The translations under genes were made by a program, and so were the position numbers. This document shows, in pieces, positions 9,942 through 38,277 of a DNA stretch of 39,782 bases (its first letter is position 1; every line of letters begins with the position of its first letter). The notes under the pieces were generated by a model. It made no database searches. It was not told the origin of the DNA and was given only the letters and a program-made list of their open reading frames with translations. Origin of the DNA: a virus (lineage: Duplodnaviria; Heunggongvirae; Uroviricota; Caudoviricetes); the IMG/VR virus record IMGVR_UViG_2687453623_000005, one strand, 5' to 3'.

Positions 9942-9945
9942 ACCA

Positions 9946-18797: not shown

Positions 18798-19292
18798 ATG
18801 AGTATGGTTGCCAGAACTAACCCCGGCCCCGCAGAGGACGACATCACCGACACCGATGATGGCGATACCCGTATTTCAGCGGGTGCATTCTGGCCGGATA
18901 TTGTGCTGCGCGAGCTGCGTCTGGCGGTACGACTGCCGGGCCGCGTGACCACCTCCCGCCTGCTGCATACCGCCACCGGGGCCATAGCACACGTTACCCG
19001 CGAGCTGGAAGCATGGCAGCAGGAACAACAGGCGGCTGGCTATCAGACGCTGGCCGATGTTCCGGCCCCTGTAATTAACGGAGAAAGCGTCAATCTCTGG
19101 CACTGGCGCAATGCTGTTTATACCGCCACACGCGCCCTGATTCTGGAGCGTTACCGCGATGCGGACACAACGGACAAGGGCGACCGCCGGGCGGACGCAC
19201 TGGATATACAGACATCGGATTTGTGGCGCGATGTGAGCTGGGCCATCTCTGACATTCTGGGACGACCGCGAATGTTTGCGGAGCTGTGCTGA
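18798..19292 (+). CDS. L: Head completion protein, P2 gpL-like
   Basis: Position after M; ATG at 18798 after CAGGAG. Confidence 0.8.
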   Translation: MSMVARTNPGPAEDDITDTDDGDTRISAGAFWPDIVLRELRLAVRLPGRVTTSRLLHTATGAIAHVTRELEAWQQEQQAAGYQTLADVPAPVINGESVNLWHWRNAVYTATRALILERYRDADTTDKGDRRADALDIQTSDLWRDVSWAISDILGRPRMFAELC

Positions 19293-19546
19293 TGAAAGTG
19301 AAGGCACTGGAAGGCGACACCGTGGATTCGCTCTGTTTCCGGTACTACGGCACGACACAGGGCGTCACCGAAAAGGTGCTGGATGCCAACCCCGGACTCT
19401 GTCAGCAGGTATTTCTGGACGCCGGGCAGGAAGTGGAGATGCCGGAGCCGGAGAAGAAGAAACGAGAAATGATTCAGTTGTGGGGGAGTAGCAGTGAGCA
19501 CCATTCAAACAGGGATCACAGAGCAGGTTATTGCGTGGCTCTTTGA
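19292..19546 (+). CDS. X: Tail protein X-like (LysM-type), 84 aa, C-terminally extended and overlapping the holin start by 53 nt
   Basis: LEGDTVDSLCFRYYG resembles P2 gpX. Start ATGA overlaps L stop. Confidence 0.75.
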   Translation: MKVKALEGDTVDSLCFRYYGTTQGVTEKVLDANPGLCQQVFLDAGQEVEMPEPEKKKREMIQLWGSSSEHHSNRDHRAGYCVAL

Positions 19547-20598: not shown

Positions 20599-20740
20599 CC
20601 CACCCACATGGGGAAACCTCGGAATATGGGGCGACCGCCTTCTGGATGCACTGGAAACCTGTAACGCGGATAAACGGGCCATTGCTGAACTGGATAAGAG
20701 AATAGCCGAACTGACACACCAGACGGGAGTAACACAATGA
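20459..20740 (+). CDS. Outer-membrane lipoprotein spanin (LysC/Rz1-like), embedded in and extending past the i-spanin gene
   Basis: Lipobox LLTGC after a signal peptide; proline-rich segment PVTPPPFPDPP. Confidence 0.65.
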   Translation: MNAPTLCLTLVLLTGCAGTQNAPGPAPSVRLIPQTLTMPVTPPPFPDPPTWGNLGIWGDRLLDALETCNADKRAIAELDKRIAELTHQTGVTQ

Positions 20741-22614
20741 CCAGTAAGAACTTTGCACTGATTACAGCCATGACACAGGCTGAACTGACTCAAAAGGTGA
20801 ATGAACATCTTGCGAAAGGGTGGCATCTTCAGGGGGAGACGCGGGTTGCCTACGAACCCGGCACCCCGTGGTATCTAATGCAGGCAATGGTGGCCGATGG
20901 CACTACAGACATCTCACCTGATTCCCCCCAGCACGGCAGCGTGCCGGAGTGGTATTACGTGGTGGTACTTGCTGGTCAATCCAATGCCATGTCATATGGT
21001 GAGGGAATGCCGCTGCCGGATTCTTACGATGCGCCCCACCCACGCATTAAGCAACTGGCCCGTCGCAACACAGTGACTCCCGGTGGTAAAGCATGCGCAT
21101 TTAACGACATCATTCCGGCAGACCACTGCCTGCATGATGTTCAGGATATGAGCGCACTGAATCACCCGAATGCAGACCTGAGCAAAGGGCAGTATGGCTG
21201 TGTCGGACAGGGCTTGCATATTGCCAAACGCCTGTTGCCTTACATTCCACAGAATGCCGGGATTTTACTGGTTCCATGCTGTCGTGGTGGTTCGGCATTC
21301 ACCCAGGGCGCGGAGGGGACATTCAGCGAGTCCACAGGAGCCAGTCAGGATTCGGCTCGCTGGGGTGTGGGTAAACCTTTATATCAGGACCTGATTTTGC
21401 GCACGAAGGCCGCATTGCAGAAAAACCCAAAAAACATGCTGCTGGCCGTATGCTGGATGCAGGGCGAATTTGACATGAGCGCCGCTACGTACTCACAGCA
21501 ACCTCCGCTGTTTACGGCCATGCTGAAACAGTTTCGTGCGGACATTACCGAGTTTAACACGCAGTGTCATGGAGGCAGAGCGGCAAGTGTGCCATGGATT
21601 TGTGGTGACACGACGTATTACTGGAAAAACACCTACGGCACGCAGTACGACACCATTTACGGGGCGTACAAAAACAGGGAGAGCGACAACGTTTTCTTTG
21701 TGCCGTTCCTGACCGATGGTAGTGGCAACAATACCTCCACCAACGCACCAACGGAAGATCCGGATGCTGCAAGTGAGGGATATTACGGTTCGGCATCCCG
21801 AACGAACAAAAACTGGGTATCATCAAATCGCCAGACGCATTTCAGCTCATGGGCGCGTCGTGGCATTATTCCCGATCGTATGGCAACCGCTATTCTGAAC
21901 GTAGCCGGTCGCACCTTAGCCTTCATCAGTGGTAAGGCACCGGAAATCAAACCCTCGCCCGGCGGCGACACGCCATCGGGGCCGTCTGAAGATGCATCCG
22001 TACGCACAATCTCCCTGTTGCCGACAGCCGGAGATGCTGCTGCGCAGGGCTGGAGCATTAAGAATGGCGGAATTCAGTTGTCAGAGGGTGTATTTAAGAT
22101 CACCAAGCAGAGCAATAAAGCCTGGTCCCTGACGCGCCCGGTGGATGACGCAGTCTCCCTGCTGACACGGGGTGGCAGACTGAGCTGTAAGTTTCGACTG
22201 TCAGGCGCACTGACCAACAATCAGTTCGGTCTGGGAATTTATCTGTATACCGATGTAGCGTTACCTGACGTCGTGGCGATGACCGGGACTGGTAACCCGT
22301 TCCTGATGTCGTTCTTCACCCAGACCACAGACGGCAAACTGAATCTGATGCATCACAAGAAAGCAGGAAACACAAAGTTGGGCGAGTTCGGGAATTACAG
22401 TAACGACTGGCAGACGCTGGAGCTGGTGTTCACCGCCGGCAGTGCCACGGTTACTCCGAAACTGAATGGAGTGGCTGGCCCGGCATTCCAGGTCATAAAA
22501 GACAGTCTGACACTGGGGCTGAATGCGCTGACGTTAACTGATATCACTAAAAATGCCGCGTACGGCGTCGATATCGGCAGCCTGGTGCTGGAAATCAATA
22601 ATCCCGCAGCATAA
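20737..22614 (+). CDS. DUF1737 + SASA-domain sialate O-acetylesterase (NanS-p-like moron), 625 aa
   Basis: VVVLAGQSNAMSYGEG matches the GQSNM esterase motif. N-terminal 50 aa resemble DUF1737. Confidence 0.75.
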   Translation: MTSKNFALITAMTQAELTQKVNEHLAKGWHLQGETRVAYEPGTPWYLMQAMVADGTTDISPDSPQHGSVPEWYYVVVLAGQSNAMSYGEGMPLPDSYDAPHPRIKQLARRNTVTPGGKACAFNDIIPADHCLHDVQDMSALNHPNADLSKGQYGCVGQGLHIAKRLLPYIPQNAGILLVPCCRGGSAFTQGAEGTFSESTGASQDSARWGVGKPLYQDLILRTKAALQKNPKNMLLAVCWMQGEFDMSAATYSQQPPLFTAMLKQFRADITEFNTQCHGGRAASVPWICGDTTYYWKNTYGTQYDTIYGAYKNRESDNVFFVPFLTDGSGNNTSTNAPTEDPDAASEGYYGSASRTNKNWVSSNRQTHFSSWARRGIIPDRMATAILNVAGRTLAFISGKAPEIKPSPGGDTPSGPSEDASVRTISLLPTAGDAAAQGWSIKNGGIQLSEGVFKITKQSNKAWSLTRPVDDAVSLLTRGGRLSCKFRLSGALTNNQFGLGIYLYTDVALPDVVAMTGTGNPFLMSFFTQTTDGKLNLMHHKKAGNTKLGEFGNYSNDWQTLELVFTAGSATVTPKLNGVAGPAFQVIKDSLTLGLNALTLTDITKNAAYGVDIGSLVLEINNPAA

Positions 22615-22637: not shown

Positions 22638-23105
22638 ATGCTTAAGACAAACAGTCTGCGAGAGTCCATGCTTCATGGGTGTCGGTGGTGCCAGGCTAAT
22701 CCCGAGAAATTCACCATTTTCGTGGAGAGCGGCAACATTGAAACGACCGGAGAAGCGCCCTCGTTTGTTTACCGCTATCAGATGGTGATGTTTGTCATGG
22801 ATTACGCCGGAGAGCTGGACGACCTCACGCTGCCGCTGCTGGCGTGGTTATCCGAAAATCAGCCACAGTTGTTGCTCAATCCGGAGCGTAATCAGGACAT
22901 CAAATTTTCTGCCGTTATCAATGACGATGACAGCGCCGATCTCCTGTTTACGCTCCCCCTGCGGGAACGCGTTCGCATCACGCGCAACAGTCAGGGCACA
23001 CCGCAGGCAGAACACCTGCCGGAGCCAAAACCCCGTCTGCCTTCTTCCGAAGGCGACTGGTCGCATGTATTCCAGGATGTGACGTGGGGTGAAAGCGATG
23101 GATAA
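22638..23105 (+). CDS. R: Tail completion protein, P2 gpR-like
   Basis: MLK..SLR N-terminus and LAWL.ENQP motif resemble P2 gpR. Confidence 0.8.
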   Translation: MLKTNSLRESMLHGCRWCQANPEKFTIFVESGNIETTGEAPSFVYRYQMVMFVMDYAGELDDLTLPLLAWLSENQPQLLLNPERNQDIKFSAVINDDDSADLLFTLPLRERVRITRNSQGTPQAEHLPEPKPRLPSSEGDWSHVFQDVTWGESDG

Positions 23106-23733
23106 GGCATTCACCCGCGTGGATGAAACCTTTGAGGCTATCCGCGACAGCCTGAATCAGCAGGCCATCAATAACATCGCCAGAAAGCTGGCACAGGATT
23201 TACGTCGCGCCCAGCAGGCACGTATCCGGTCACAAAAAGCGCCGGACGGGACCGAATGGACACCACGCAGACGCCGCGTAACCCGGATACAGGAGCGCAT
23301 TCGCTTTATCTGGAATAACGAAGCACGCACGCTGAAAAACTGGCATCACGACACAGGGAAATACGGGCGAACCATTACCGGGTGGGATGAGGATAAAAAC
23401 AATATCCGCACGTTTTACCGGGATGACATCGACCGTTTTCTGGAAATACGCACCCGGCGCATCAACCAGGACAGCACAAAGCGCGTCCCCATGTTCGTAA
23501 AACTGCGCACCGCCCGCTACCTGAAAGCCCGTGCAGATGCCTCCGGTGTGACGGTGGGTTACAGCGGCGTGGCCGCACGTATTGCACGCGTTCATCAGTT
23601 CGGTGAGCGCGATCAGGTTGCGCCGGGCATTTTCACCGATTACCCGGTACGTGAGCTGTTGGGTATCAGCCAGGCAGATGAGCGCCTGATTTATAACACG
23701 GTGCTGGGCCGGATTGCGGAGGCTGTACGGTGA
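23098..23733 (+). CDS. S: Tail completion protein, gpS-like (longer than P2 gpS)
   Basis: Synteny between R and V; overlapping start. Confidence 0.65.
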   Translation: MDKAFTRVDETFEAIRDSLNQQAINNIARKLAQDLRRAQQARIRSQKAPDGTEWTPRRRRVTRIQERIRFIWNNEARTLKNWHHDTGKYGRTITGWDEDKNNIRTFYRDDIDRFLEIRTRRINQDSTKRVPMFVKLRTARYLKARADASGVTVGYSGVAARIARVHQFGERDQVAPGIFTDYPVRELLGISQADERLIYNTVLGRIAEAVR

Positions 23734-24311
23734 GCGCAGAACTCATGCGACTGCTGAGCAACATCATCCGCACCGGGATCATCTCTGAAGTTGATGAGAA
23801 GTCCTGGCGCGTGCGCGTTCGCAGCGGCGAACTGGAAACAGGCTGGTTGCGCTGGAACACCACGCGCGCGGGAGCCTTCAATGTGTGGCTGCCGCCATCA
23901 CCAGGCGAACAGGTGGTAATTGCCTGCATTGGCGGCAACCCGGAAACCGCCATGATAATTGGCAGCCTGTGGAGTGATGCCAGTCCGGCCCCCGGCAAAA
24001 GCCTGAAAGAAATCGTGGTCAGCGCGCCGGATGGCGCGGTGTTCCGCTACGACGCAGACGCTGGCGCACTGAGCGCCAGCGGCATGAAAACAGCCACCCT
24101 GCAGGCATCCGTCAGCGTGACACTGGATACGCCCGTCGTGGAATGCACAAACCTTCTGAGAACGGCGACGCTTGACGTCACAAAAGAGGGAAAGATGAGC
24201 GGCAATATCACGCACAGCGGCGGCAATTTCACCTCAAACGGCATTACCGTGCATACGCATAAGCACGGTGGCGTTAAAGGTGGCAGCGATTCGACAGGAG
24301 GCCCGCAGTGA
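23730..24311 (+). CDS. V: Baseplate spike/assembly protein, P2 gpV-like
   Basis: Synteny, size, glycine-rich C-terminus. Confidence 0.85.
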   Translation: MSAELMRLLSNIIRTGIISEVDEKSWRVRVRSGELETGWLRWNTTRAGAFNVWLPPSPGEQVVIACIGGNPETAMIIGSLWSDASPAPGKSLKEIVVSAPDGAVFRYDADAGALSASGMKTATLQASVSVTLDTPVVECTNLLRTATLDVTKEGKMSGNITHSGGNFTSNGITVHTHKHGGVKGGSDSTGGPQ

Positions 24312-24658
24312 CAACCCGCTACACAGGAATGAACCCGGACGGGACGGGAAACCTGAACGATATGGAGCACCTGAAACAGTCAGTCAGGGACATCCTGATC
24401 ACCCCGCTGGCAAGCCGGGTTATGCGACGGGAATATGGCAGCCTTGTGCCTGATTTGATTGACGAACCCATGAATAACACCACGCGTCTGCAATGCATGA
24501 GTGCTGCCGTGATTGCGCTGACACGATGGGAACCCCGCATTGCCCTGGACGCCATCGACGTTGTCTGGAAGGCAGGAGGCCGCGCCGGGGTGACGCTGTC
24601 GGGCACTGTCATGCAGACCATGCAGAATGTTGAATTAACCATCACGCTGAGAGAGTAA
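24308..24658 (+). CDS. W: Baseplate wedge protein, P2 gpW-like (gp25-like)
   Basis: Size and synteny. Confidence 0.85.
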   Translation: MTTRYTGMNPDGTGNLNDMEHLKQSVRDILITPLASRVMRREYGSLVPDLIDEPMNNTTRLQCMSAAVIALTRWEPRIALDAIDVVWKAGGRAGVTLSGTVMQTMQNVELTITLRE

Positions 24659-24661
24659 ATC

Positions 24662-25558
24662 ATGCCTGCTGTTGATCTTTCCCAGTTACCGGAACCCGCC
24701 ATCATCGCGGAGCCTGATTTTGAGGCAATTCTGGCTGACACAAAGGCCATGATGATTGCGTCCTATCCTGCCGAACAGCGTGAAGCCGTCTCCGCCGCGC
24801 TGGAGCTGGAATCAGAACCCCTGAACGTTATCGCTCAAACCATGTCGTTTCGTGAAATGCTGTTACGCCAGCGGGTTAACGAGGGCGCACGCGCCTGCAT
24901 GTTAAGCCACGGTTCAGGGACAAACCTGGACAACCTCGCGGGCAATATGAACACAAAGCGCCTGGTTATCACTCCGGCAACGGATACCACCGACGCGGTG
25001 ATGGAGAGCGACACCTCGCTGAGACTGCGGGCGCAGCGGGCGTATGACGGCCTGAGTGTTGCTGGCCCGTCAGGTGCATACGAGTATTTTGCACGCAGCG
25101 CCAGCGGTCTGGTGCGTGATGCGCGGGCCATCAGCCCGTCTCCGGCCTGTGTGACGGTTTCCATTCTGTCCACTGAAGGCGACGGCACAGCAACGGAGGC
25201 GTTGCTTAATACCGTTCGCGCCGTTCTGAATGCAGAGGATACCCGCCCGGTGGCCGACCGACTGACCGTACAGAGCGCCAGCATCGTGACATGGCGGCTG
25301 AATGCAAAACTGTACTTTTACCCCGGCCCGGAATCCGAACCTATTCTGGCTGCGGCTGAATCGTCGTTCAGGAAGTGGCTGGCTGAGCAGGGGCTTATTG
25401 GTCAGGACGTGGCGTTGTCAGCCATTGCTGCCGCACTTCATGTGCACGGCGTGCAACGCGTGGAGATAATCGAACCCACACAGAATATGGCCATCAGCGA
25501 CATACAGGCGGCGCGCTGTGAGTCATTCACCATCAGCGAAGGTGGGCGTAATGAGTAA
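24662..25558 (+). CDS. J: Baseplate protein, P2 gpJ-like
   Basis: Size and synteny. Confidence 0.85.
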   Translation: MPAVDLSQLPEPAIIAEPDFEAILADTKAMMIASYPAEQREAVSAALELESEPLNVIAQTMSFREMLLRQRVNEGARACMLSHGSGTNLDNLAGNMNTKRLVITPATDTTDAVMESDTSLRLRAQRAYDGLSVAGPSGAYEYFARSASGLVRDARAISPSPACVTVSILSTEGDGTATEALLNTVRAVLNAEDTRPVADRLTVQSASIVTWRLNAKLYFYPGPESEPILAAAESSFRKWLAEQGLIGQDVALSAIAAALHVHGVQRVEIIEPTQNMAISDIQAARCESFTISEGGRNE

Positions 25559-26081
25559 TTCACTGTTACCGCCATCAGCCAGCAATTTCATGCGTTGCGC
25601 CGAAGCTGTCGGAGCGCGCATTACAGACATCCCGGTAGACCTCAACACGCTGTGGTCACCGGACACCTGCCCGGTGCATCTGCTGCCTTATCTCGCCTGG
25701 GCATTTTCCGTTGACCGCTGGGATCGCAACTGGCCGGAAGAGACAAAGCGACAGGTGATTCGTGATGCATGGCTGATACACCGACACAAAGGGACCATCA
25801 GCGCACTGCGCCGGGCCATTGAGCCGCTGGGATACCTCATTCGCGTGTCTGAGTGGTGGGAGTTCGGCGGAGAACCGGGAACATTTACCGTTGAAGTCGG
25901 CACGCTGGACAGTGGCGTGACGGAGGAAATGTATCTGGAAATGGAGCGGTTGATTGCTGATGCCCGCCCGGTCAGCCGCCACATGACAGGGCTGAATATC
26001 ATTCAGGAGATTCAGGGAGATATTTTCGCGGCGGCAGCAACTTACGACGGCGAAGTCATTACCATTTATCCGGACGATTAA
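25551..26081 (+). CDS. I: Baseplate protein, P2 gpI-like
   Basis: ATG at 25551 overlapping J stop; size matches P2 gpI. Confidence 0.8.
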   Translation: MSNSLLPPSASNFMRCAEAVGARITDIPVDLNTLWSPDTCPVHLLPYLAWAFSVDRWDRNWPEETKRQVIRDAWLIHRHKGTISALRRAIEPLGYLIRVSEWWEFGGEPGTFTVEVGTLDSGVTEEMYLEMERLIADARPVSRHMTGLNIIQEIQGDIFAAAATYDGEVITIYPDD

Positions 26082-26083
26082 GC

Positions 26084-28069
26084 ATGAGTACCACAACACG
26101 TAAATTTAAAACCGTTATCACCGATACGGGTGCCAAAAAATTAGCTCAGGCAGCCGCGCCAGATGGTAAGCCTGTCCGCCTGACTCATATGGCCGTGGGC
26201 GACGGTGGCGGCACGTTGCCCACACCAGACAGTAAGCAGACCCGTCTGGTGCATGAGGTGTGGCGACATACTGTTAATCGCGTCATCCTGGACGCAACAC
26301 ATCAGAACCGCATTATTGCGGAGCTGGTTATTCCTCCTGAAACGGGCGGATTCTGGATCCGGGAAATTGGTGTATTTGATGAGCACGGCGATTTAATCGC
26401 GGTGGGCAATACTGCCGAAAGTTACAAGCCAGCCGTTGCCGAAGGGTCCGGTCGTGCACAAACATTTCGCACCATTCTGACCGTATCCAGCACTGCCACC
26501 GTGGTGCTTACCGTGGATAACACCATGGTGATGGCCACAGTGGATTACGTGGATGACAAACTGAAAGAGCATGAACAGTCACGACGTCACCCGGACGCCT
26601 CGCTGACCGCAAAAGGCTTTGTTCAACTCAGTAGCGCCACTAACAGCGTGTCTGAAACGCAGGCTGCAACGCCGAAAGCAGTAAAGGCCGCGTATGACCT
26701 TGCTAACGGTAAATATACTGCGCAGGATGCCAGCACGACGCGAAAAGGCCTTGTCCAGCTCAGTAGCGCCACCAACAGCACGTCTGAAACGCAGGCTGCA
26801 ACGCCGAAAGCAGTAAAGGCCGCGTATGACCTTGCTAACGCAAAATATACCGCTCAGGACGCCACGACGGCACAAAAAGGGATAGTCCAGCTCAGTAGTG
26901 CCACCAACAGCACGTCTGAAACACTGGCCGCGACATCGAAAGCTGTTAAGGCGGTAATGGATGAAACGAACAAGAAAGCGCCCTTAAATAGTCCTGCACT
27001 GACCGGAACGCCAACAACACCAACTGCGCGACAGGGAACGAATAATACCCAAATCGCAAGCACGGCTTTCGTTATGGCTGCGATTGCCGCCCTTGTAGAT
27101 TCGTCACCTGATGCACTGAACACGCTGAACGAGCTGGCTGCGGCGCTGGGCAACGACCCGAATTTTGCGACCACCATGACTAACGCGCTTGCGGGTAAGC
27201 AACCGAAAGATGCCACCCTGACGGCGCTGGCCGGACTTACTACTGCGGCAGGCAAGTTTCCGTATTTTACGGGGAATGATGTCGCCAGCCTGGCAACCCT
27301 GACAAAAGTCGGGCGGGATATTCTTGCGAAATCGACCGTTGCTGCCGTTATCGAATACCTCGGTTTACGAGAACTCGGCACAAGCGGGGAGAAAATACCG
27401 TTACTCAGTACAGCGAATACCTGGACCAATCGACAAACATTCAGCGGTGGCCTTTCTGGGGAACTGTCCGGCAATGCCGCTACTGCAACAAAGCTGAAAA
27501 CAGCACGAAAAATTGCTGGAGTTGGTTTTGATGGTTCTAGCGATATTTCAATTAGTGCCAAAAATGTCAATGCATTTGCACTCCGACAAACAGGTAATAC
27601 TGTTAATGGTGATACATCCGTTGGATGGAATTGGGATAGTGGTGCATATAACGCCATGATTGGTGGTGCATCTGCATTAATTCTTCACTTTAATATAAAT
27701 GCTGGTAGCTGTCCTGCCGTACAATTCCGTGTGAATTATAAAAATGGTGGCATTTCCTACAGGTCGGCTCGTGATGGTTATGGGTTTGAATTAGGTTGGT
27801 CAGATTTCTATACCACGACACGAAAACCTTCAGCGGGAGATGTTGGTGCATATACGCGGACAGAATGTAACTCAAGGTTTATTACAGGTATTCGCCTTGG
27901 CGGTCTGTCATCTGTTCAGACATGGAATGGTCCCGGCTGGTCTGACAGGTCAGGTTATGTCGTTACGGGTTCAGTTAACGGAAACCGTGATGAATTAATT
28001 GATACAACACAGGCAAGGCCAATTCAGTATTGCATTAATGGGACGTGGTATAACGCGGGGAGTATTTAA
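26084..28069 (+). CDS. H: Tail fibre protein, P2 gpH-like, 661 aa; the C-terminal variable part lies inside the invertible segment
   Basis: Conserved N-terminus, internal repeats, AT-rich variable C-terminus. Confidence 0.9.
26612..26970 (+). repeat. Three tandem 132-bp (44-aa) repeats inside the tail-fibre gene
   Basis: Repeat starts at 26612, 26744 and 26876; third copy diverges. Confidence 0.8.
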
Positions 28070-28071
28070 CG

Positions 28072-28604
28072 ATGATGCACTTAAAAAACATTACTGCTGG
28101 CAACCCTAAAACAAAAGAGCAATACCAGCTAACAAAGCAATTTAACATCAAATGGCTTTATTCAGCTGATGGAAAAAACTGGTATGAGGAACAAAAGAAT
28201 TTCCAGCCAGACACTTTGAAAATGGTCTATGACCATAACGGCGTTATTATTTGTATTGAAAAGGATGTTTCAGCAATTAATCCGGAAGGCGCAAGCGTCG
28301 TTGAATTACCTGATATTACAGCAAATCGCCGGGCTGATATTTCGGGGAAATGGATGTTCAAAGATGGCGTAGTGGTAAAGCGAACTTATACCGAGGAAGA
28401 GCAGAGCAACAAGCGGAAAATGAAAAGCAGAGCCTGTTGCAACTTGTCAGGGATAAAACTCAGCTATGGGACTCACAGCTACGGCTGGGCATCATTTCCG
28501 ACGAGAATAAACAAAAATTAACCGAGTGGATGCTCTATGCGCAGAAAGTCGAATCCACAGACACCTCCAGCCTGCCAGTAACATTTCCCGAACAACCTGA
28601 ATGA
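28072..28604 (+). CDS. G: Tail fibre assembly protein (Tfa/gpG-like), interrupted by an apparent -1 frameshift near 28395..28410
   Basis: Track ORFs 28072..28521 and 28350..28604 together reproduce a full Tfa, judged by comparison with the minus-strand copy. Confidence 0.7.
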
Positions 28605-28632
28605 GACAAGGCCCGATAACGGGCCTTAATTT

Positions 28633-29159
28633 TTATTCAGGCTTTTGTGGCCATTCAGGATTTGCCGTATCCACACGGTTGACCAGAACACTGTAGCGTT
28701 CCCATGCTTCCAGTCGTGTGCGTTCCTCGTCTGTTGCCATATTCAGCCTGACAGCGCGTTCCAGCGGCTGGATGACTGATTCAGCTTCGGAAAGCAATGC
28801 GGCCTTTTGTGATTCGGCCTGTTGTTGCTGTTCGTCAGCCGTATAAATCCGTTTAACCACAGCTCCGTCCTTAAACATCCACTTACCGGAATCATCGGTC
28901 CGACGATTGGCCGTTATATCGGGAACCTCGACGACGCTAAAACCTTCGGGATTAAGCGTGGAGGCATCTCTGGTGATGGCGACAATAATATTATTTTCAT
29001 CGTAAACAATCTTTATGGTGTCTGGCTGAAAGTTTTTCACTTCCTCATACCAGTTTTTTCCGTCCTCAGAGTAAAGCCAGATAACTCCGTGTTTCTTTGT
29101 TAACTCATACTGTTCAGTGTTTTAGCATTACCCGCTTTTATGTTCTTTAAGTGCATCAT
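28633..29159 (-). pseudogene. Alternative tail fibre assembly gene (tfa'), frameshifted near its 5' end
   Basis: Reverse strand begins [14 protein letters not shown], then a stop; the out-of-frame continuation matches the plus-strand Tfa. Confidence 0.6.
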
Positions 29160-29990
29160 ATTAATCGCTCTTTTACAGTGCATTATATACTTTGAACGGT
29201 CTGTAATAAACACCCGCTATATTATCGCAGAGTTAGACCCTGTATCCTGAACATTAATACCAGACAATACATGACTGAAGGCACTGGAAATTCCATGTTC
29301 GCCAGTTGTTCACTCCATAATATTGCTGTAACCAAGTCGAACATCTTTCACATAACGGAATCAAACCGTAATCGAGATTAACACGCCCGTAATATGTCTA
29401 TACGAATGCCGGGACAGCGCATTCCATGTACTGAACAGCATGAACAGTACCGCCAAGAGCGAATACCTGTAATACAACCTGAGTTCACCATTCATTGTAC
29501 CAGCAGATAACGCAGTGCACCAACATCTCCTGCTGAAGGTTTTCTGGTGGTGGTGTAAAATTCGGACCAGTCGCTTTCAAAACCATAACCATCACGGGCT
29601 GAACGATAAAAAATACCGCCATTTTTATAATTAATCCGAAACTGAGCTGCAGGACAACTTCCGTCTCCATATAAAAATGAATAATTAACGTTGATGCACC
29701 ACCAATATTTGCGTTATAGGCTCCGCTACTCCAGTTCCATCCAACTGCTTTATCACCATTAACGGTGCTTCCTGTTTTCCTAAGGCAAACGCACCAACAT
29801 GACTTGCTTTTAATGTGATATCGGAGGAACCATCAAAAGCCACATTGCTTATTTTCCTGGCAGTTTTTAATTTTGCAGCTGTAGAAGCATTGCCGGATAG
29901 TTCACCAGAAAGGCCACCGCTGAATGTTTGTCGATTAGTCCAGGTATTCGCTGTACTGAGTAACGGTATTTTCTCCCCGCTTGTGCCGAG
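29160..29990 (-). pseudogene. Alternative tail-fibre C-terminal variable region (H'), disrupted by at least two frameshifts
   Basis: Reverse-strand translation matches the plus-strand H C-terminus in three different frames. Only a 61-aa ORF (29485..29670) survives. Confidence 0.5.
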
Positions 29991-30070
29991 TTCTCGTAAA
30001 CCGAGGTTTTAAATAATGGCCGTTTCTGGCCTGCATGGCATGATTTGCGCTTTTGGACGGGAGATTCAGT

Positions 30071-30670
30071 GTGCTGATTGGCTATGTAAGGGTATCAACA
30101 AATGACCAGAATACAGACCTGCAACGAAACGCTCTTGTTTGTGCAGGATGTGAACAAATATTTGAAGATAAATTAAGCGGGACAAAGACAGACCGACCGG
30201 GATTAAAACGCGCTTTAAAGCGCCTTCAAAAAGGTGACACGCTGGTTGTCTGGAAACTGGATCGCCTCGGGCGAAGCATGAAACATCTGATTTCTCTCGT
30301 CGGGGAACTACGGGAGCGAGGGATTAATTTTCGCAGTCTGACCGACAGCATAGACACATCTTCTCCAATGGGGCGTTTTTTCTTCCACGTGATGGGTGCC
30401 CTGGCTGAAATGGAACGTGAATTAATTGTTGAACGTACACTGGCCGGGCTGGCGGCAGCGCGCGCAAGGGGGCGCACAGGCGGACGTCGACCGAAGCTGA
30501 CAAAAGAACAGCATGAGCAAATAGCAAGGCTAATCAAAAACGGGCACGACAGAAAACAACTGGCAATAATTTACGGCATTGGCACATCGACGATTTATCG
30601 TTATCACCCTGTAGGCGATATACAGACTGAAGAAACAACCGGGCAGACTCAGGAAAATGAAAACCGCTAA
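30071..30670 (+). CDS. Serine recombinase, DNA invertase of the Gin/Pin/Cin/Hin family (GTG at 30071; track ORF starts at TTG 30053)
   Basis: LIGYVRVSTNDQNTDLQRNAL...LVVWKLDRLGRSMKHL is near-identical to Mu Gin and e14 Pin as recalled. Confidence 0.95.
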   Translation: MLIGYVRVSTNDQNTDLQRNALVCAGCEQIFEDKLSGTKTDRPGLKRALKRLQKGDTLVVWKLDRLGRSMKHLISLVGELRERGINFRSLTDSIDTSSPMGRFFFHVMGALAEMERELIVERTLAGLAAARARGRTGGRRPKLTKEQHEQIARLIKNGHDRKQLAIIYGIGTSTIYRYHPVGDIQTEETTGQTQENENR

Positions 30671-30690
30671 TCTGACCATTAGCGGTTTTT
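30662..30690 (+). terminator. Intrinsic terminator after the invertase
   Basis: Hairpin AACCGCTAAT-N6-ATTAGCGGTT followed by a T-run. Confidence 0.55.
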
Positions 30691-30698
30691 GTGTTAAA

Positions 30699-31193
30699 TC
30701 AGAACAGCCCTTTAACTGAACTGGCCGCGCTGTTAAGAGATGATGTCACCTTATCTTTGAAGCCGGACAGCATATCACTGAACGATGAGGATTGCAGGCG
30801 CTCCCGCAAATCCTCATCACAGCGTTCAAGAGTCAGTGAAAATTCTATCTTTTTCGCCTTACCGTAGCGATCAAACTCGGAGCGGGTCGTATTCGTTTCA
30901 GTCAGGACATACATGCCGTAAATCTGCCCGACGCCATCAATCAAAGGCCAGGGTCGTCCTGTATACGCCTGCGTGGTCAGCAGCGACAGCGACACTTCGC
31001 CACCTGTAATTTCAGGATAAAGCACACCAGAAAGAACGATGCGATCATCACCTGCACCGATATACTGCCAGCTTGCTGAACGGTTAACGCGTTCATTTTT
31101 CACATGCCGCCAGCTTTTGTTTTGCTGTAACTGCTGATGCGGCAGCGTGCGCAGCTCAAAAACAAACATGCCGTAGATCATCATCATGGCCAT
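30699..31193 (-). CDS. U: Tail protein, P2 gpU-like
   Basis: Size and position downstream of the tape measure gene. Confidence 0.8.
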   Translation of the reverse strand: MAMMMIYGMFVFELRTLPHQQLQQNKSWRHVKNERVNRSASWQYIGAGDDRIVLSGVLYPEITGGEVSLSLLTTQAYTGRPWPLIDGVGQIYGMYVLTETNTTRSEFDRYGKAKKIEFSLTLERCDEDLRERLQSSSFSDMLSGFKDKVTSSLNSAASSVKGLF

Positions 31194-31199
31194 GACTCC

Positions 31200-34043
31200 T
31201 CAATCTTTATCGTAAAAACTGCCACGCCCGGCACGGGCGCGCCGTTCCATTTCTGCCCTGACCATTTCACCGACCAGTTTCGCCAGTTCGCGGGGATTCT
31301 GCGTAACAACGTTATGCAGATGAACATGAATTTCACCACCAAATCCGGAGGCAACAGGCTCCCGGTTACGGGAAGTTACAGGAACTGATGCCACTGGAGA
31401 TCGTATAGCCTCCGCCACCGGGCGGGAGCTGGCCGCAACAACAGGGACCAGCGCCGGAGGCAGCGGAGCCGGGACCACGGGTGTGATATTAATTGCGGGG
31501 GCAGGCTTACTGACCTGCGCAATCTTCCGCTCCTGCCACTCCCCACGAACAGCAAGTGCTCGGGGCAGGTTTTTAAAGACAATATCGCCGGGGCCAATGC
31601 GTTTTTTCGTCTCCTCAACCAGCTTACCTGTGTTATCAGCAATTTTGCTGAGTCTGCGCAGCGTACCGGTATTGCTGTCTGTGAGCGGTTTATTGTCTTT
31701 GGGGTTATCACCTCCGGTGCCATTGCCATTTTCCACAGGCTTCGGCGGATTGATTTTCGCCAGGTCCCCCTGAAGCAAGGCAACCTTGTCCTGAAGAATG
31801 GCCGCACGCTGTGCGTCTTCGATTTTCTTGCGCGCCCTTTCCGCTTCATCCGGAAGCACACCAAGCTTTTCAAGTATCCACGCCAGCGTATCCAGCAACA
31901 TTTTTGCAGGTGTCAGAACAAGTTGTAACGCACCGCCAAGAACGTTACCGAATATCTCGCCAGCACTGGTACATTTATCCAGAGTTTCCTTGCTGGACTC
32001 CATCGGAGACAGCAGCGATTTAAACCAGTTAAACACCTGGCTGATCCCACTCCCGATTGCGTCAAAAACAGGACCAAACCGTTCAAAGGTTTCGCGCAAC
32101 GGGGTCAGCCTTTCCATAATCCCGCTGAACACCCCGGCAAAAAATGCCCTGATGGGATCCCAGTATTTCCAGATGAGAACGGCAGCTCCGGCAAGCGCAG
32201 CCACGATAAGGCCGACCGGACTGAACAACGCCCCGATAGCGCCCCCCAGTAACGAAACGGAACCCGTCACCATTCCCCATAGTGCTGGCAGGAGTCTGAC
32301 AGCATTCATTGAACCGGTCAGGAGGGAAAAGCCAAGACGCAGTTTTGCCAGCGGGCCAGCAAGCACACCAATAGCCAGCGACAACGAGCCAACCGTTGCA
32401 GTCATTGCCAGCAACGCACCGCCTGCTATCAGTAGCTGGCGCGTCAGTACCGGATGGGCCTGCGCCAGCGAGGTGATTTTTTCAAGCACCCGCGTGAGCC
32501 ACTGCGTGACAGAACGCAGCGGACCGTCAACCAGATCACTGATGCGAATACGAAGACCTTCCCATGCGCTGTCGAGATTTTTCAGGTCCCCATCAAGATT
32601 ATCGGCCATTACTTTTGCAACGCGATCGGCCTCTCCCCTTGCCCCCTGCAATTCTCTGGTCAGTTTTTGCAGCTCTCCTGAACCAGCCGCCGCAACAAGC
32701 GTCTGCAAACCAACGAACGCCTCTTCTCCGGCGATGTCCTTGAAGAAGGAAACCTGGTCCACCTGTCCGTATTTTTGTGTCGCCTTATAGAGATCAAGCA
32801 GCACATCCTCCATCGGGCGCATTTTGCCTCTGGCGTCAGCAACTGACACCCCCAGCTCTTTCAGCGCATCAGCCGCAGCTTTTGGCGGTGATGCAAGGCG
32901 GGACAGACTTGCGCGCATGGCCGTACCAGCATCGCTTCCACGAAGACCATTATTGGCAAGCATCCCGGCCATGGCTGCCGCTTCTTCAAGACTGATACCA
33001 AGTTTTGCGGCAACCGGACCGGTATACTTCATGGTTTCGCCCAGCGCGCGTAAATCAGTATTGGTCCGGGTGAATGCCGCTGTCAGCGTATCGCCAACCC
33101 GGTCCATTTGATCGGCTGTCAGGTTGAACTGTGTGAGGATATTGGAGCCTATATCAGCCGTCTCGCCGAGTTCGACGCCACCTGCCAGCGCCATATTAAG
33201 AACACCGGGCAATGCGGCCTGAATGGCCTGCGGAGTAAAACCAGCCATTGCCAGAAAGCTCTGCCCACTGGCGGCATCACTCGCAGTAAACTGTGTTTCA
33301 GAGCCAAGTTTTAACGCCTGCTCACGCAGCGCCTTAAACTGCGGGCTGTTTTTGTCGATTCGCGTCAGCGCCTGAACGCGGGACATCTCTTTGCCGAACC
33401 CGATCGCGGGCTGCAAAAAACGCCCGGCAGCATAGCCGCCCGCCGCTGCCGCACCAATTGCCAGCGCACCACCTGTTTTCAGTTTTCCCGCGGTTTCCTG
33501 CGCGCGCGAATACCGCTCACGAGCCTGCGTTACACGCGCAAGCGCCTGCCGTTCGCGTTCAAGCTGGTTGTTGTATTGTTCGGTGCGTCTGATGGCCTGC
33601 TGGATGGTGTTATCGCTGCCTGTCAGGGAAATGCCGTGGCGTTTCAGTTCTCCGCCAAGCTCCCGCATTTTCTGAATTTCCCGTGTGCGCGATTCATTCA
33701 GGCGTTCAAGCCGGGTGCTTAACTGCTGCATCAGCTTTTGTTGTTTTTCGCTGAGCACTGTACCCGTGCGTTGTAACTGATTAAGGGCGTTAAGCTGGCG
33801 TCGTGCTTTCACGATACCCGCATCCGCTTTACTGACAGCGTCGCGGGCGCGCTCAAATGAACGCGCCTGACGCTCGAGATTTTTGATCGCCCCCTGCGTT
33901 CGCTGAATGGAGTCACCAAACTGCCCCATCAGGCGGCGGGCGTTTTCGGCAGGCCGGGTCAGCCTGTCAACGGCGCTGAAAGCGACCCGGATGTCAAGAG
34001 TCTTCATTATCTGCATTCCCGCTGCGAAGTGCCGCCCGCTCAC
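31200..34043 (-). CDS. T: Tail tape measure protein, P2 gpT-like, 947 aa
   Basis: Length, coiled-coil N-terminal region, Gly/Ala-rich hydrophobic middle. Confidence 0.9.
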   Translation of the reverse strand: MSGRHFAAGMQIMKTLDIRVAFSAVDRLTRPAENARRLMGQFGDSIQRTQGAIKNLERQARSFERARDAVSKADAGIVKARRQLNALNQLQRTGTVLSEKQQKLMQQLSTRLERLNESRTREIQKMRELGGELKRHGISLTGSDNTIQQAIRRTEQYNNQLERERQALARVTQARERYSRAQETAGKLKTGGALAIGAAAAGGYAAGRFLQPAIGFGKEMSRVQALTRIDKNSPQFKALREQALKLGSETQFTASDAASGQSFLAMAGFTPQAIQAALPGVLNMALAGGVELGETADIGSNILTQFNLTADQMDRVGDTLTAAFTRTNTDLRALGETMKYTGPVAAKLGISLEEAAAMAGMLANNGLRGSDAGTAMRASLSRLASPPKAAADALKELGVSVADARGKMRPMEDVLLDLYKATQKYGQVDQVSFFKDIAGEEAFVGLQTLVAAAGSGELQKLTRELQGARGEADRVAKVMADNLDGDLKNLDSAWEGLRIRISDLVDGPLRSVTQWLTRVLEKITSLAQAHPVLTRQLLIAGGALLAMTATVGSLSLAIGVLAGPLAKLRLGFSLLTGSMNAVRLLPALWGMVTGSVSLLGGAIGALFSPVGLIVAALAGAAVLIWKYWDPIRAFFAGVFSGIMERLTPLRETFERFGPVFDAIGSGISQVFNWFKSLLSPMESSKETLDKCTSAGEIFGNVLGGALQLVLTPAKMLLDTLAWILEKLGVLPDEAERARKKIEDAQRAAILQDKVALLQGDLAKINPPKPVENGNGTGGDNPKDNKPLTDSNTGTLRRLSKIADNTGKLVEETKKRIGPGDIVFKNLPRALAVRGEWQERKIAQVSKPAPAINITPVVPAPLPPALVPVVAASSRPVAEAIRSPVASVPVTSRNREPVASGFGGEIHVHLHNVVTQNPRELAKLVGEMVRAEMERRARAGRGSFYDKD

Positions 34044-34532
34044 GCCAGCTAACCACTTCGCCGGGCGTCATCATGAAGATTTCGGCGGGCGACCAGTTGA
34101 AAATGGCGGCAATATCCGCCACCAGATCTTCGATGTGCTCAAAGCACACCAGGGTGATTACGCTGCCGTCTCCTGCACGCTCTTCGCGCCAGAGTCTGGC
34201 TCGCTCATAAAATTTACAGCCACAGCGCACAACTGAATAAAATCGCGTGACGACATTTTTTTAATCATCACTTCATCCAGTCGTGGCGAGGTCACGCGAG
34301 GCAACAGCGTGAACATGGTATCCGCTTTCAGATTCAGCACATCAGACAGCGACAGACCACGCAGGGATCCCGCCTGCTCAATAGCCCCGGTGATCTCCAC
34401 ATATGTGATTTTTTCGGCACCACGCTCAATTGGCCGGGAAAGTTTTACACCACGTTCGACAGCCATATCCTCACCTGACGTCACATCATCCGCTACGGTG
34501 TTATTCCGGGTTTCAGTATCGATATCTTTCAT
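33994..34532 (-). CDS. Tail assembly chaperone fusion E+E' produced by programmed -1 frameshift at the A7 run (plus-strand T7 at 34256..34262)
   Basis: The -1 frame is open from the slippery run to the stop at 33994; same architecture as P2 E/E' and lambda G/GT. Confidence 0.6.
34158..34532 (-). CDS. E: Tail assembly chaperone, gpE-like
   Basis: Position between FII and T; AAGGAG ribosome-binding site. Confidence 0.8.
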   Translation of the reverse strand: MKDIDTETRNNTVADDVTSGEDMAVERGVKLSRPIERGAEKITYVEITGAIEQAGSLRGLSLSDVLNLKADTMFTLLPRVTSPRLDEVMIKKMSSRDFIQLCAVAVNFMSEPDSGAKSVQETAA

Positions 34533-34587
34533 CAGTTGTCTCCTTTTCAGTCAGAGGCGACGCACTGCGCCGCCTGCATATTACTTA

Positions 34588-35100
34588 TCAGCCAAGCCCA
34601 AGCGCGGAACGAATGCGGTCAGGCACAATGTCCTTGCCGTCCTTCCGGTAGATGTGGTTCAACAGGTCGATTTCCCACAGCGGGCGATCGTTAACGCTCA
34701 GCTTGTAGTAGGTGTTTTTGACAGCGTAAGTGTGTGATGTGGCTTCGCCCTGTTTGGCCTCCCCCATATCAATTTCCGTCACACGCCCGCGCATCTCGAT
34801 TTCATACAGATCGCTTTCTGCATCGGTGTAATATTCACCCGCAAAACGCAGCAGCGTGCCGTCAATCGTGCCGCCATACTTAAGGAACAGTGCACGAACA
34901 GCTCCCCCCATGACAAAGCTCGCATCAAGCGCGGAGTCGTCCAGACCGAGATCAATACTTACTGCTCCCATCATGCCACCACCACGATAGCTGTCGGTTT
35001 TGCGCGTCAGTTTGGGCGGCGTGACGGATGTCACTTTACCCACTTCGTTTTCACCATCCACAAACAACGTAAAAAAGCGAAGATGTTTTGGTACAGCCAT
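34588..35100 (-). CDS. FII: Tail tube protein, P2 gpFII-like
   Basis: Size and synteny. Confidence 0.9.
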   Translation of the reverse strand: MAVPKHLRFFTLFVDGENEVGKVTSVTPPKLTRKTDSYRGGGMMGAVSIDLGLDDSALDASFVMGGAVRALFLKYGGTIDGTLLRFAGEYYTDAESDLYEIEMRGRVTEIDMGEAKQGEATSHTYAVKNTYYKLSVNDRPLWEIDLLNHIYRKDGKDIVPDRIRSALGLG

Positions 35101-36284
35101 CAGGCACCTCCCAGCACCGCAAATGCGGGACCAAAGAATTCATCAGTAAACGTCTGGTAAAGCTCCATGTCTTCCAGCGGGGGAACGGGCGTATATTTGT
35201 AGCGAATACGCACACGCCCCTGACGTAAATCCGTGGTGCCGTTATCCACCACGTCATACCAGCACTCCGCGCCAATCAGTTTCCCGGCAGTAACCAGCGA
35301 ATCCAATTTTGCCCTGATGGCACTGATAACATCCTTCACGTTCGCAGGCGTCAGTGGACTGTCGATGGTTTCAAACTGCGCTTCCGCAATTGAATCAGCC
35401 AGCACCTGTGCGGTTCGGGTATACACCTCAAAGATGTAGGCGTTCGTTTCCGGTGTGCGGTTGCCCCAGAAGCGGAACCCGTTACGACGAATAATGGTCG
35501 TGATTTCTTTGTTGTTGAGGCTGTTGGCATCACTGTCTTCGGCCTGTAACGACCAGAACACATGCCTCGACATCCCCAGCACATTTTTAACCGGAACGTT
35601 GGACAGCGATTTGTGCCAGCCCTGCTCATGGTCAATGTACGCACGAAGGCCGCACGCATAAGCAGGCGCGGGGAACGTTTCGTTTTTGCCACTTTTCGGG
35701 TTGTAGGCGATGAAGTCAGGCCATAAGAGCATCACCTCACGTTCGTTGAATTTCTGGCGGTAGGTAATCGCCTCAGCCATCGTGTTACAACCATGACATG
35801 TGGCATACACAAACGCGCGCAGTTTACCCGCAATCACGCACAGGGATTTTGTCACCGCCTCCGTGTCCAGCTCCGGCGCGGCCAGAATACGCGGACGGTA
35901 TCCGATGCTTTCATCCTGCTCTGCAACAAGCAGCGCATACATCCCCGTATAGCTGCCGTCAGATTCAGAACCACCGATAACCAGTTGATCCTGCGTCCTA
36001 CCGCCTTCTTCTTTGTGTTCAGCCACGCGAACGACGATCACTTTTGTGCTCACCTGGTCTGCGATAGCCTTAAGCGCACGATAAAGCGTCCCCGTAGTCC
36101 CGCATTTTCCCAGCACGTCATTGACGCGGGTCAGCAGTGTGGGCTTGTTCAGCGGGAACAGCTCCGCATCCGCATCATCCGCCGTTGCCACGATACCGAT
36201 AACGCTGGAATCAACATCATTAATCGCTGTTACCAGGTCGGTACTTTCCGTGACACGGGCACCATGAAAACGAGTTTCACTCAT
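35100..36284 (-). CDS. FI: Contractile tail sheath protein, P2 gpFI-like, 394 aa
   Basis: Motifs DADAE.FPLNKP, KLRAF, GWHK.LSNV and LIRR.GFRFWGNRT match P2 FI as recalled. Confidence 0.95.
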   Translation of the reverse strand: MSETRFHGARVTESTDLVTAINDVDSSVIGIVATADDADAELFPLNKPTLLTRVNDVLGKCGTTGTLYRALKAIADQVSTKVIVVRVAEHKEEGGRTQDQLVIGGSESDGSYTGMYALLVAEQDESIGYRPRILAAPELDTEAVTKSLCVIAGKLRAFVYATCHGCNTMAEAITYRQKFNEREVMLLWPDFIAYNPKSGKNETFPAPAYACGLRAYIDHEQGWHKSLSNVPVKNVLGMSRHVFWSLQAEDSDANSLNNKEITTIIRRNGFRFWGNRTPETNAYIFEVYTRTAQVLADSIAEAQFETIDSPLTPANVKDVISAIRAKLDSLVTAGKLIGAECWYDVVDNGTTDLRQGRVRIRYKYTPVPPLEDMELYQTFTDEFFGPAFAVLGGA

Positions 36285-36441
36285 AGCTTCAGCCCCTTGT
36301 ATCCGTTAAATGATTCGGCAACAATCATCACCCACCACGCGCGTAATCTCACCCCTGCGCCGTTCTCCCGCCACGGCGACAACAAAAAGCAGTAACCCCC
36401 TCCGCACGCACATGCGACCATGCCGCACAGGGAGGGAGCAG

Positions 36442-37551
36442 ATGACCGACACCACCATGCAATTGCTCAGTCAGGGCACAGACCCCGTGAAAATGCCGGA
36501 TTTTGATATTCTCGCGGAGGGTAAAACGCTGTCAGGCGTGGCAGAGCGCCTGATGAGCCTGTCACTGACCGACAACCGGGGATTTGAGGCGGACCAGCTC
36601 ACCATCACGCTGGATGATGCGGATGGTCAGTTGCAGCTACCGCCACGGGGCGCGCGCCTGACGGTTCTCATTGGCTGGAAAGGAGAACCGCTGACAGAAA
36701 AAGGCACTTACATTGTTGATGAAATCGCTCACGAAGGACCGCCGGACAGGCTGACTGTTTCAGCCAGAAGCGCAGATTTTCGGGATGAATTTAACGTTAA
36801 ACGTGAGGTGTCCTGGCATGATGTGACCGTTGAGCGTGTGGTATCCGCCATCGCTCATCGGTATGGTCTGAAACCGCAAATCAGCGAAATGCTGATGGAT
36901 ATCGAAATCGACCACGCCGACCAGACCGAAGAAAGCGACATGTCCTTCCTTACGCGCATGGCGGAAATGCTGGGCGCAATCACCACGGTAAAAAGCGGTA
37001 ATCTGTTATTCATCATGCCCGGCGGTGGCGTGAACGCACAGGGCCAGCCGTTGCCATCGTTTGCCATCACACGCAGCAGCGGCGATCGCCATCAGTTCCG
37101 CATTGCTGACCGCGAAGCGTATACGGGGGTACGCGCTTACTGGCTTGATCTTAATTACGGGAAAAAGAAAAAAGTCAGCGTGAAACGCCGTAAACCGCCA
37201 AAACCCAAAAAGGAGAAAAGCAGCAGCCGCGAAGGTGATTATATGGAAGGCGCGGAAGGCAATGTGTTTGTGTTACGCAAGACTTATCAGAACGAGCAGG
37301 CAGCAAGACGCGCAGCGGCGGCAAAGTGGCAGCAACTACAACGCGGAGCCGCATCATTCTCCATCACGCTGGCGCGTGGACGTGCAGAACTCTACCCCGA
37401 AATGCATGGCACGGTAACAGGATTTAAAAGCGAGATTGATAATCAGGACTGGATCATTGCAAAAGCCGAGCACACCATTGATAACAGCGGTTTTACCACG
37501 CAGCTTGAGCTTGAGGCAAAAATCCCGGAATGGATAGCGGAAACAGAGTGA
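36442..37551 (+). CDS. D: Tail protein/late control protein, P2 gpD-like
   Basis: ATG at 36442 after GGAGGGA; size and position next to ogr. Confidence 0.85.
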   Translation: MTDTTMQLLSQGTDPVKMPDFDILAEGKTLSGVAERLMSLSLTDNRGFEADQLTITLDDADGQLQLPPRGARLTVLIGWKGEPLTEKGTYIVDEIAHEGPPDRLTVSARSADFRDEFNVKREVSWHDVTVERVVSAIAHRYGLKPQISEMLMDIEIDHADQTEESDMSFLTRMAEMLGAITTVKSGNLLFIMPGGGVNAQGQPLPSFAITRSSGDRHQFRIADREAYTGVRAYWLDLNYGKKKKVSVKRRKPPKPKKEKSSSREGDYMEGAEGNVFVLRKTYQNEQAARRAAAAKWQQLQRGAASFSITLARGRAELYPEMHGTVTGFKSEIDNQDWIIAKAEHTIDNSGFTTQLELEAKIPEWIAETE

Positions 37552-38184: not shown

Positions 38185-38277
38185 GGAAACCGCGACGGGG
38201 AAGGCAACTTCCCCGTCAATCGGTTGCCAGGGTAAAGGTCGAAAAGGCACCCTATTTCCAGTTGACGTGAACAACAA

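Follow-up and report, generated by a model that had tools for sequence, protein, structure and literature searches.

The IMG/VR virus record IMGVR_UViG_2687453623_000005, a stretch of 39,782 nucleotides (nt) to which we refer in its entirety as the window, contains a complete prophage that extends from the integrase gene (positions 1-993, minus strand) through to the host gene serS and carries, in its tail-fiber region, a DNA segment bounded by two inverted crossover sites and followed by the gene for a serine DNA invertase. In a megablast comparison with 5,426 complete Escherichia coli genomes, which served as the complete-genome set throughout this work, positions 1-25000 of the window were found to be 100.0% identical to a prophage that is present in many ST131 strains, apart from two 1-nt indels, and the tail-fiber region showed 99.2% identity to the corresponding regions of EC958, JJ1887 and other strains. 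The insertion site is common to the window and the prophage Phi1 of EC958, with int located beside dmsA and the far end beside serS. Judging by these matches, the window is the prophage Phi1 of E. coli ST131, a P2-like element that belongs to Xuanwuvirus (P88-like Peduoviridae). The name Phi1 comes from the study of E. coli O25b:H4-ST131 EC958, where both crossover sites are listed in Table 3 (Forde et al., 2014; PMC4134206). The EC958 copy is annotated as intact, with an H protein of 661 amino acids (aa), Tfa proteins of 177 aa (tfa) and 175 aa (tfa'), an H' fragment of 894 nt and a recombinase of 199 aa, and all four reading frames are intact in EC958 and in more than 100 ST131 genomes. Differences between the window and EC958 were scored base by base, first across positions 23001-34300 and then across the whole window.

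The tail-fiber gene H (26084-28069, plus strand) encodes, in the orientation shown, a protein of 661 aa in which the Pfam domain Phage_tail_fib and three Phage_fiber_2 repeats were detected. The constant part of this gene extends up to the crossover site at 27348, and the variable tip, denoted Hv (27374-28069, plus strand), is part of the same open reading frame (ORF). The H protein of the window is identical to that of EC958 (WP_021538277), and this exact protein is encoded on at least 1000 contigs. Within the constant part, positions 26593-26952 comprise three tandem 132-nt repeats, with 75-88% identity among them, which encode the Phage_fiber_2 repeats. Next to the tip, also on the plus strand, lies tfa (28072-28604), the gene for a tail-fiber assembly chaperone of the Mu U' type, which in the window is split into two frames (28072-28521 and 28350-28604). 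The opposite, minus strand carries the alternative set, namely tfa' (28633-29159), the gene for a chaperone of the Mu U or P2 G type that is out of frame, and H'v (29161-29990), an alternative tail-fiber tip of the P2 H type with no open frame in the window. Both chaperones match the Pfam domain Caudo_TAP in their intact EC958 forms. An earlier note made on the window from its sequence had described this layout, with Hv and tfa on the plus strand and an inverted alternative set on the minus strand, and the present analysis bears it out.

The left crossover site, gixL (27348-27373, plus strand), reads TTATCGAATACC TC GGTTTACGAGAA, or in full TTATCGAATACCTCGGTTTACGAGAA, lies inside the H frame and is the published Phi1_5prime site. 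The right site, gixR (29991-30016, minus strand), reads TTATTTAAAACC TC GGTTTACGAGAA on the minus strand, is given as TTATTTAAAACCTCGGTTTACGAGAA and is the published Phi1_3prime site. The two 26-bp sites differ by three mismatches, have the same central TC/GA dinucleotide between two 12-bp half-sites, are inverted relative to each other and bound a 2.67-kb segment (2669 bp). When gix-type matches with at most three mismatches were sought in the window, these two sites only were recovered, with 0 expected on the basis of 100 shuffles. Both had been reported in the earlier note, the right one exactly and the left one at 27349, so that the latter has to be moved one base to the left. The sites lie at the outer ends of an imperfect inverted repeat, delineated by repeat search and alignment, with a left arm at 27344-27850 and its partner at 29516-30020. 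Over the first ~95-115 nt, counted inward from the core, the arms are near-identical (1-3 mismatches), the 170-nt arms 27344-27513 and 29851-30020 are 89% complementary, and the homology then continues at 77-80% to ~27850 and 29516, respectively; the 130-bp near-identical repeats proposed previously are therefore roughly right.

Immediately beyond the segment lies an intact gene with a GTG start (30071-30670, plus strand) for a 199-aa serine DNA invertase of the Gin/Cin/Pin/Hin family. It contains the Pfam domains Resolvase (E=1.4e-50) and HTH_7 (E=4e-13), that is, the resolvase domain and C-terminal helix-turn-helix that, together with the location of the gene beside the segment, define a Gin-type serine recombinase, and the exact protein is present on at least 1000 contigs. 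The previous assignment of a downstream Gin-family invertase is thus confirmed, with the start placed, as in EC958, at GTG 30071 instead of TTG 30053. By homology, the 5' part of this gene (30071-30310, plus strand), which shows ~99% nt identity to the 5' end of Mu gin, is a putative Fis-dependent recombinational enhancer (sis). The first ~240 nt of the invertase gene almost certainly include the Mu sis sequence, from which an enhancer function can be predicted. We take sis to be located inside the 5' end of gin (Kahmann et al., 1985). As far as the nucleotide sequence allows one to judge, the switch is intact, with both sites, the invertase and the enhancer region unchanged.

The working of the switch can be deduced from this organization. 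A Gin-family serine invertase would act on the inverted pair of 26-bp gix sites, of which gixL lies within H, and recombine them; by homology, the inversion would be assisted by Fis bound to the putative enhancer in the 5' part of the invertase gene. As the segment is oriented in the window, the constant part of H would be joined to a Mu S'-type tip and accompanied by a U'-type chaperone, and after inversion it would be joined to a P2 H-type tip and accompanied by a U/G-type chaperone. When the EC958 segment was flipped in silico at the centre of both sites, an intact 740-aa H followed by tfa' was obtained, gixL being located in the H frame, such that the tip is swapped in frame in the EC958 copy; the flipped product of the window itself is out of frame. 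Strains AR_0086, AR_0058 and JJ1887, among others, contain the native 1400-nt junction from end to end with 100% identity; the synthetic junction of the flipped form, likewise 1400 nt long, is present just as completely and with 100% identity in 4/1-1, 4/4, AR_0055, Ecol_656 and others. At least 80% of the respective junction query is covered in 423 records for the native and 381 for the flipped arrangement, and the strand relations in the megablast matches of positions 1-25000 and 29050-29850 are consistent with the two arrangements. These matches indicate that the segment is inverting in ST131 prophages with identical flanks, in strains other than the source of the window.

Inversion has also been directly observed in EC958, where the Phi1 invertible segment of 2773 bp lies within a 508-bp imperfect inverted repeat with 77% identity and ~50% of the PacBio reads held the segment in the alternative orientation (PMC4134206). 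The Gin/Pin-type invertible tail-fiber switch that the earlier note had recognized is therefore borne out and matches the published Phi1 switch (PMC4134206), a host-range switch of the G-segment type in which alternative tips, each followed by its own chaperone gene, are joined in frame to H. A description of the Phi1 switch, including its sites and the high frequency of its inversion, was published in 2014, the mechanism is the classical Gin/gix one, and in this respect the system is already known.

A close parallel to this arrangement is the G segment of phage Mu, which has the same architecture, with a constant fiber part outside, head-to-head sets of tip and chaperone inside, 26-bp gix borders and the invertase gene directly after. 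Mu Gin is 85% identical to the invertase of the window, residues 1-120 differ at 2 positions only, and the catalytic-serine motif GYVRVSTNDQ is identical in the two proteins; the alignment of gixR with its Mu counterpart contains 4 differences. Mu U' is 97% identical to the intact tfa product and Mu U is 90% identical to that of tfa', the Mu S' tip of the G(-) orientation is 88% identical to the last 165 aa of Hv, and the C-terminus of phage P2 H is 84% identical to the intact H' tip. Given these tip homologies, the orientation found in the window would express the Mu G(-)-type set, and inversion would express the P2 H/G-type set. Unlike Mu, the host phage of the window is a P2-like member of Peduoviridae, its constant part is of the P2 H type and includes Phage_fiber_2 repeats, its second tip resembles that of P2 H and has no megablast match to Mu Sv, and the inverted repeat reaches ~510 bp at 77% identity. 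The P1/P7 C segment (Cin), the e14 P segment (Pin) and the G segment of the Shigella phage SfMu belong to the same module family, with 90-93% nt identity over tfa/tfa' and the adjacent tip; for SfMu, the identity is 90.5% from the Hv tip into the invertase gene (query 1619-4427, with 41% of the query covered). These elements have backbones and constant fiber parts that differ from those of the window, and in P1 the fiber is longer and the separate cin/cix nomenclature is used.

Against this background of a conserved and evidently active switch in related strains, the segment in the window differs markedly from that of EC958, being 2669 bp long versus 2774 bp, a net loss of 105 nt. Realignment of the copies against EC958, which had been suggested as a way to place each indel, located the lesions between 28405 and 29778. 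In tfa, one G is lost after 28405 (GG to G), and a CC pair of tfa' is reduced to a single C at 29114, near codon 16; the frameshifts previously noticed in the expressed tfa and in tfa' are thus indeed present in the sequence. The alternative tip had been said to contain at least two frameshifts. It is frameshifted, as claimed, but the lesions are far more numerous and amount to a net loss of ~100 nt from H'v, with ~15 small deletions, mostly of one G or C from G/C runs, an 8-nt patch at 29756-29763 that is identical to Hv, and a noisy 63-nt Hv-like tract (29423-29485, minus strand) in which 57 of the 64 aligned columns match Hv rather than H'. This tract replaces ~123 nt of H' and is colinear with the end of the homologous arm. 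One putative deletion is spanned by the k-mer pair GAAGAGCAGAGCAACAAGCG versus GAAGAGCAGAGGCAACAAGCG.

When the H' half was aligned with jumps between the two arms permitted, the columns assigned to H' comprised 799 matches, 20 deletions, 1 insertion and 4 substitutions, and 91 further matched columns were attributed to Hv/tfa. With the real Hv as the second parent, the score of this jumping alignment was 801, compared with a maximum of 786 in 30 shuffled controls, a modest degree of support given that jumps let the aligner skip large deletions cheaply. Over the segment as a whole, Hv is free of differences from EC958, tfa contains the single deletion and the H'/tfa' half is heavily hit. All differences between the window and EC958 fall within 28405-29778, with the exception of three sites, 935, 19481 and 31928-31931.

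The three flanking sites are two single-base deletions, at 935 and 19481, and a four-base register shift at 31928-31931; the other ~37 kb are free of private changes. In the integrase gene, a C5-to-C4 contraction at 930-940 causes a frameshift near codon 20 and leaves a 289-aa ORF with a GTG start. The contigs that encode this frameshifted integrase number 24 and come in part from Illumina (Logan) and metagenome data; the variant was not found among the 348 complete RefSeq genomes that carry the prophage; in the sublineage with this variant, the prophage may be unable to excise. In the gpX gene (19292-19546, plus strand), a run of G6 or G5 at ~19476-19481 yields a protein of 66 aa in EC958 versus 84 aa in the window, where the reading frame continues into the beginning of the holin gene; with 289 contigs encoding it, the longer form is a common real variant. 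In the tape-measure gene (minus strand), the register shift at 31928-31931 gives AACGCACC in the window versus ACGCAACC in EC958, and the variant of the window is present on at least 1000 contigs, such that EC958 is the exception. The possibility that the changes at 935, 19481 and 31928 reflect a genome-wide profile of homopolymer-deletion errors was considered and rejected because the protein variants that they produce occur on 24, 289 and at least 1000 contigs, respectively, with Illumina-based assemblies among them. Given that the flank variants are shared with independent assemblies, the assembly of the window looks accurate outside the segment.

The lesions inside the segment show a different distribution across assemblies. 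None of the 5,426 complete E. coli genomes contains the same lesions, and the best match to 29050-29850 in this set is only 94.7% identical. The truncated 149-aa form of Tfa is absent from a collection of 15 billion proteins and from the gene-position index, compared with 997 contigs for the intact form. A 46-mer from the garbled tract gave 0 matches in the genome and metagenome collections, and the intact 46-mer from the same place was found on 19 metagenome contigs. None of the assemblies reached via the 135-aa tfa' fragment or the 289-aa integrase variant shares the H' of the window. A natural donor for the tract 29396-29485 was sought in the complete-genome set among other prophages, Phi4 and plasmids; none was found, and the best match, at 84.6%, is Hv of the same prophage.

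The same locus is garbled in several other public assemblies. Arm purity was scored at 109 sites that distinguish the Hv arm from the H' arm, and in EC958 and phage 503458 the arms compared were pure at 109 of 109 sites. In the assembly denoted L005, an arm alternates between blocks of the two kinds, with Hv-type bases at 64 sites and H'-type bases at 29; the corresponding counts for an arm of L013 are 20 and 69, and both arms are hybrids in L008 as well as in L011. In all four, the reading frames are broken, and each is garbled in a different manner. More generally, several recent assemblies in the set L004-L013 (GCA_0532916xx, GCA_0396151xx and GCA_0455xxxxx) contain interleaved Hv/H' hybrids and fragmented ORFs for H, tfa and the invertase, and some are fragmented well past the locus, as expected for uncorrected long-read assemblies. 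A distinct kind of change is the presence of IS1 within the alternative fiber part of the segment, in L008 (1990-2686), L011 (1990-2686) and JJ1887; such an insertion is a genuine route to the loss of one receptor-binding set. In the ENA metagenome scaffold L015 (7451-10870), the H' end lies ~250 bp from the frameshifted integrase gene and the rest of the prophage is missing, an arrangement that reflects either a derivative of the prophage with a large deletion or a wrong join in the metagenome assembly.

In view of this evidence, the frameshifts in tfa, tfa' and H' very probably represent a consensus or assembly artefact that is linked to inversion. The sequenced culture would have held both orientations of the segment, and reads from the flipped form would have piled onto the 77%-similar opposite arm, giving rise to consensus or polishing errors. 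The lesions are probably not real because they are confined to the invertible DNA, are nearly all indels, include a noisy hybrid of the two arms, are absent elsewhere and have their counterpart in the varied garbling of other assemblies. The changes are concentrated in 1.4 kb of a 39.8-kb element, with ~5 indels for every substitution, a spectrum that does not suit neutral decay but does fit consensus error. Furthermore, the Hv-like tract is only ~89% identical to the perfect Hv that lies 1.5 kb away, so gene conversion would not yield such a tract. The proposal in the earlier note that the alternative set and the expressed tfa are decayed is accordingly not supported, the lesions being segment-confined, indel-dominated, unique and likely artefactual.

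Several considerations weigh against an inversion-linked artefact. The argument is drawn from the assembled sequence rather than from the reads. The damage is asymmetric, heavy in H' and tfa', limited to one deletion in tfa and absent from Hv, and a simple 50:50 mixture of orientations should affect both arms. The integrase frameshift of this sublineage, caused by the C5-to-C4 change at 935, is real and recurs in Illumina assemblies made independently; the prophage may already be immobilised, and genuine decay of the tail fiber would not be absurd. Bacterial pseudogene decay is likewise deletion-biased. Finally, real disruption of the locus occurs in relatives, in the form of IS1 in JJ1887 and in L008 and L011. 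Nevertheless, it appears improbable that the lesions are real, when decay and recombination between the arms are taken together.

If the decay were genuine, tfa, tfa' and H' would be truly frameshifted and the switch would flip between non-functional fibers. The frameshifts are present in the sequence, the real integrase frameshift on the 24 contigs, Illumina assemblies included, fits a prophage that is heading for immobilisation, and the IS1 insertions in JJ1887 and other strains show that the locus can be lost. Under neutral decay, however, substitutions are expected to be at least as frequent as indels and the flanks to have diverged in proportion, whereas ~21 indel columns versus 4 substitutions, the reverse of that spectrum, and a net loss of 105 nt are crowded into 1.4 kb, and the remaining ~37 kb show no private difference. 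The lesions were not shared by any of the independently sequenced relatives searched, and they are absent from the 5,426 complete genomes, the protein collection and the DNA scans. Moreover, when PacBio and 454 assemblies of the single strain EC958 were compared, a similar cluster of "2 substitutions/20 indels" emerged in the Phi1 segment and was traced to mixed orientation in the culture (PMC4134206). Genuine decay thus seems quite unlikely.

A related scenario, under which patchy gene conversion or illegitimate recombination brought Hv sequence into H' and produced a true chimera that was later inactivated, draws on the match of the 8-nt patch (29756-29763) and the 63-nt tract (29423-29485) to Hv, on the colinearity of the tract with the end of the homologous arm and on the occurrence of Hv/H' mosaics in other assemblies too. 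We consider it very improbable, given that conversion should copy exactly and the tract is only ~89% identical to the Hv of the same molecule, itself 100% identical to that of EC958. In addition, rejoining H' 123 nt further on would require an illegitimate junction, and the other mosaics all differ and all break the frame, although conversion between in-frame homologues should usually keep it; the single-base deletions in G/C runs are not explained by conversion at all. An artefact could also have arisen from another cause, such as cross-mapping from paralogous tail-fiber segments or locally low coverage. ST131 genomes contain ~5 places that are similar to the region, and Phi4 has near-identical gix sites and an invertible segment of its own (PMC4134206). 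This origin of the errors seems extremely improbable given that the tract best matches the Hv arm of the same prophage, with one matching place in ST131 genomes, and that the borders of the invertible DNA are exactly where the lesions end.

Outside the switch, the backbone of the prophage conforms to Xuanwuvirus, with V-W-J-I-H on the strand opposite to the tail module that extends from the sheath gene to U, the invertase gene between them, and P2-type late genes. Escherichia phage 503458 (Xuanwuvirus xv503458) resembles the window in that the gene order and strands are equal, including the invertase and the opposite-strand sheath-to-U module, and the two are 97.7% identical over 83% of 26000-31300; phage 503458 differs from the window in having an unrelated H' tip, with the divergence starting directly after the crossover site. 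The sheath-tube-E-T-U module (30699-36284, minus strand) is inverted compared with the order in P2 and abuts the invertase gene. A larger invertase-mediated inversion of this module relative to P2 was considered and rejected because EC958 and phage 503458 are arranged alike; this is the normal arrangement in Xuanwuvirus.

Several other genes of the prophage merit mention. Between the lysis and tail-completion genes (20737-22614, plus strand) lies a cargo or accessory gene for a 625-aa protein that combines DUF1737, SASA (a carbohydrate esterase domain of the sialic-acid-specific acetylesterase type) and DUF6645; we know of no P2 counterpart. Beside the replication endonuclease gene, positions 8982-10260 (plus strand) encode plasmid segregation genes of the ParM/StbA type, for which the EC958 annotation gives ParM and a partitioning/stability protein; their presence hints at an option of plasmid-like maintenance for the prophage. 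A Hok/Gef-family toxin gene is located at the end of the prophage, between ogr and serS (~38151-38291, plus strand), according to the EC958 annotation. The gpD gene is covered by a 413-aa ORF (36310-37551, plus strand) in which the match to Phage_GPD is limited to residues 135-393; identical DNA is annotated in RefSeq as a 266-aa protein and a pseudogene fragment, and a 369-aa protein is called in the metagenome copy L015, such that the N-terminus of D, at the divergent junction between the sheath gene and D, looks unsettled.

Biologically, these observations add little beyond the published switch. One further interpretation of the lesions, which we regard as decidedly unlikely, is that they are real and that contractions in G/C runs, together with imprecise patches templated by the opposite arm, accumulated solely between the gix sites in an ST131 sublineage whose integrase is defective. 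If this were true, repeated cleavage and religation by the invertase or pairing of the imperfect arms would make the invertible segment a local mutational hotspot, which could destroy both receptor-binding sets while the switch still flips. Under the inversion-linked artefact that we favor, the analysis is a caution, as invertible segments that are present in mixed orientation give a garbled consensus and thereby false pseudogenes of tail fibers and chaperones in assemblies that are otherwise accurate. Several public assemblies have the same problem at this locus, and the tail-fiber and chaperone genes within it should be scored as decayed only when orientation-sorted reads support that conclusion.

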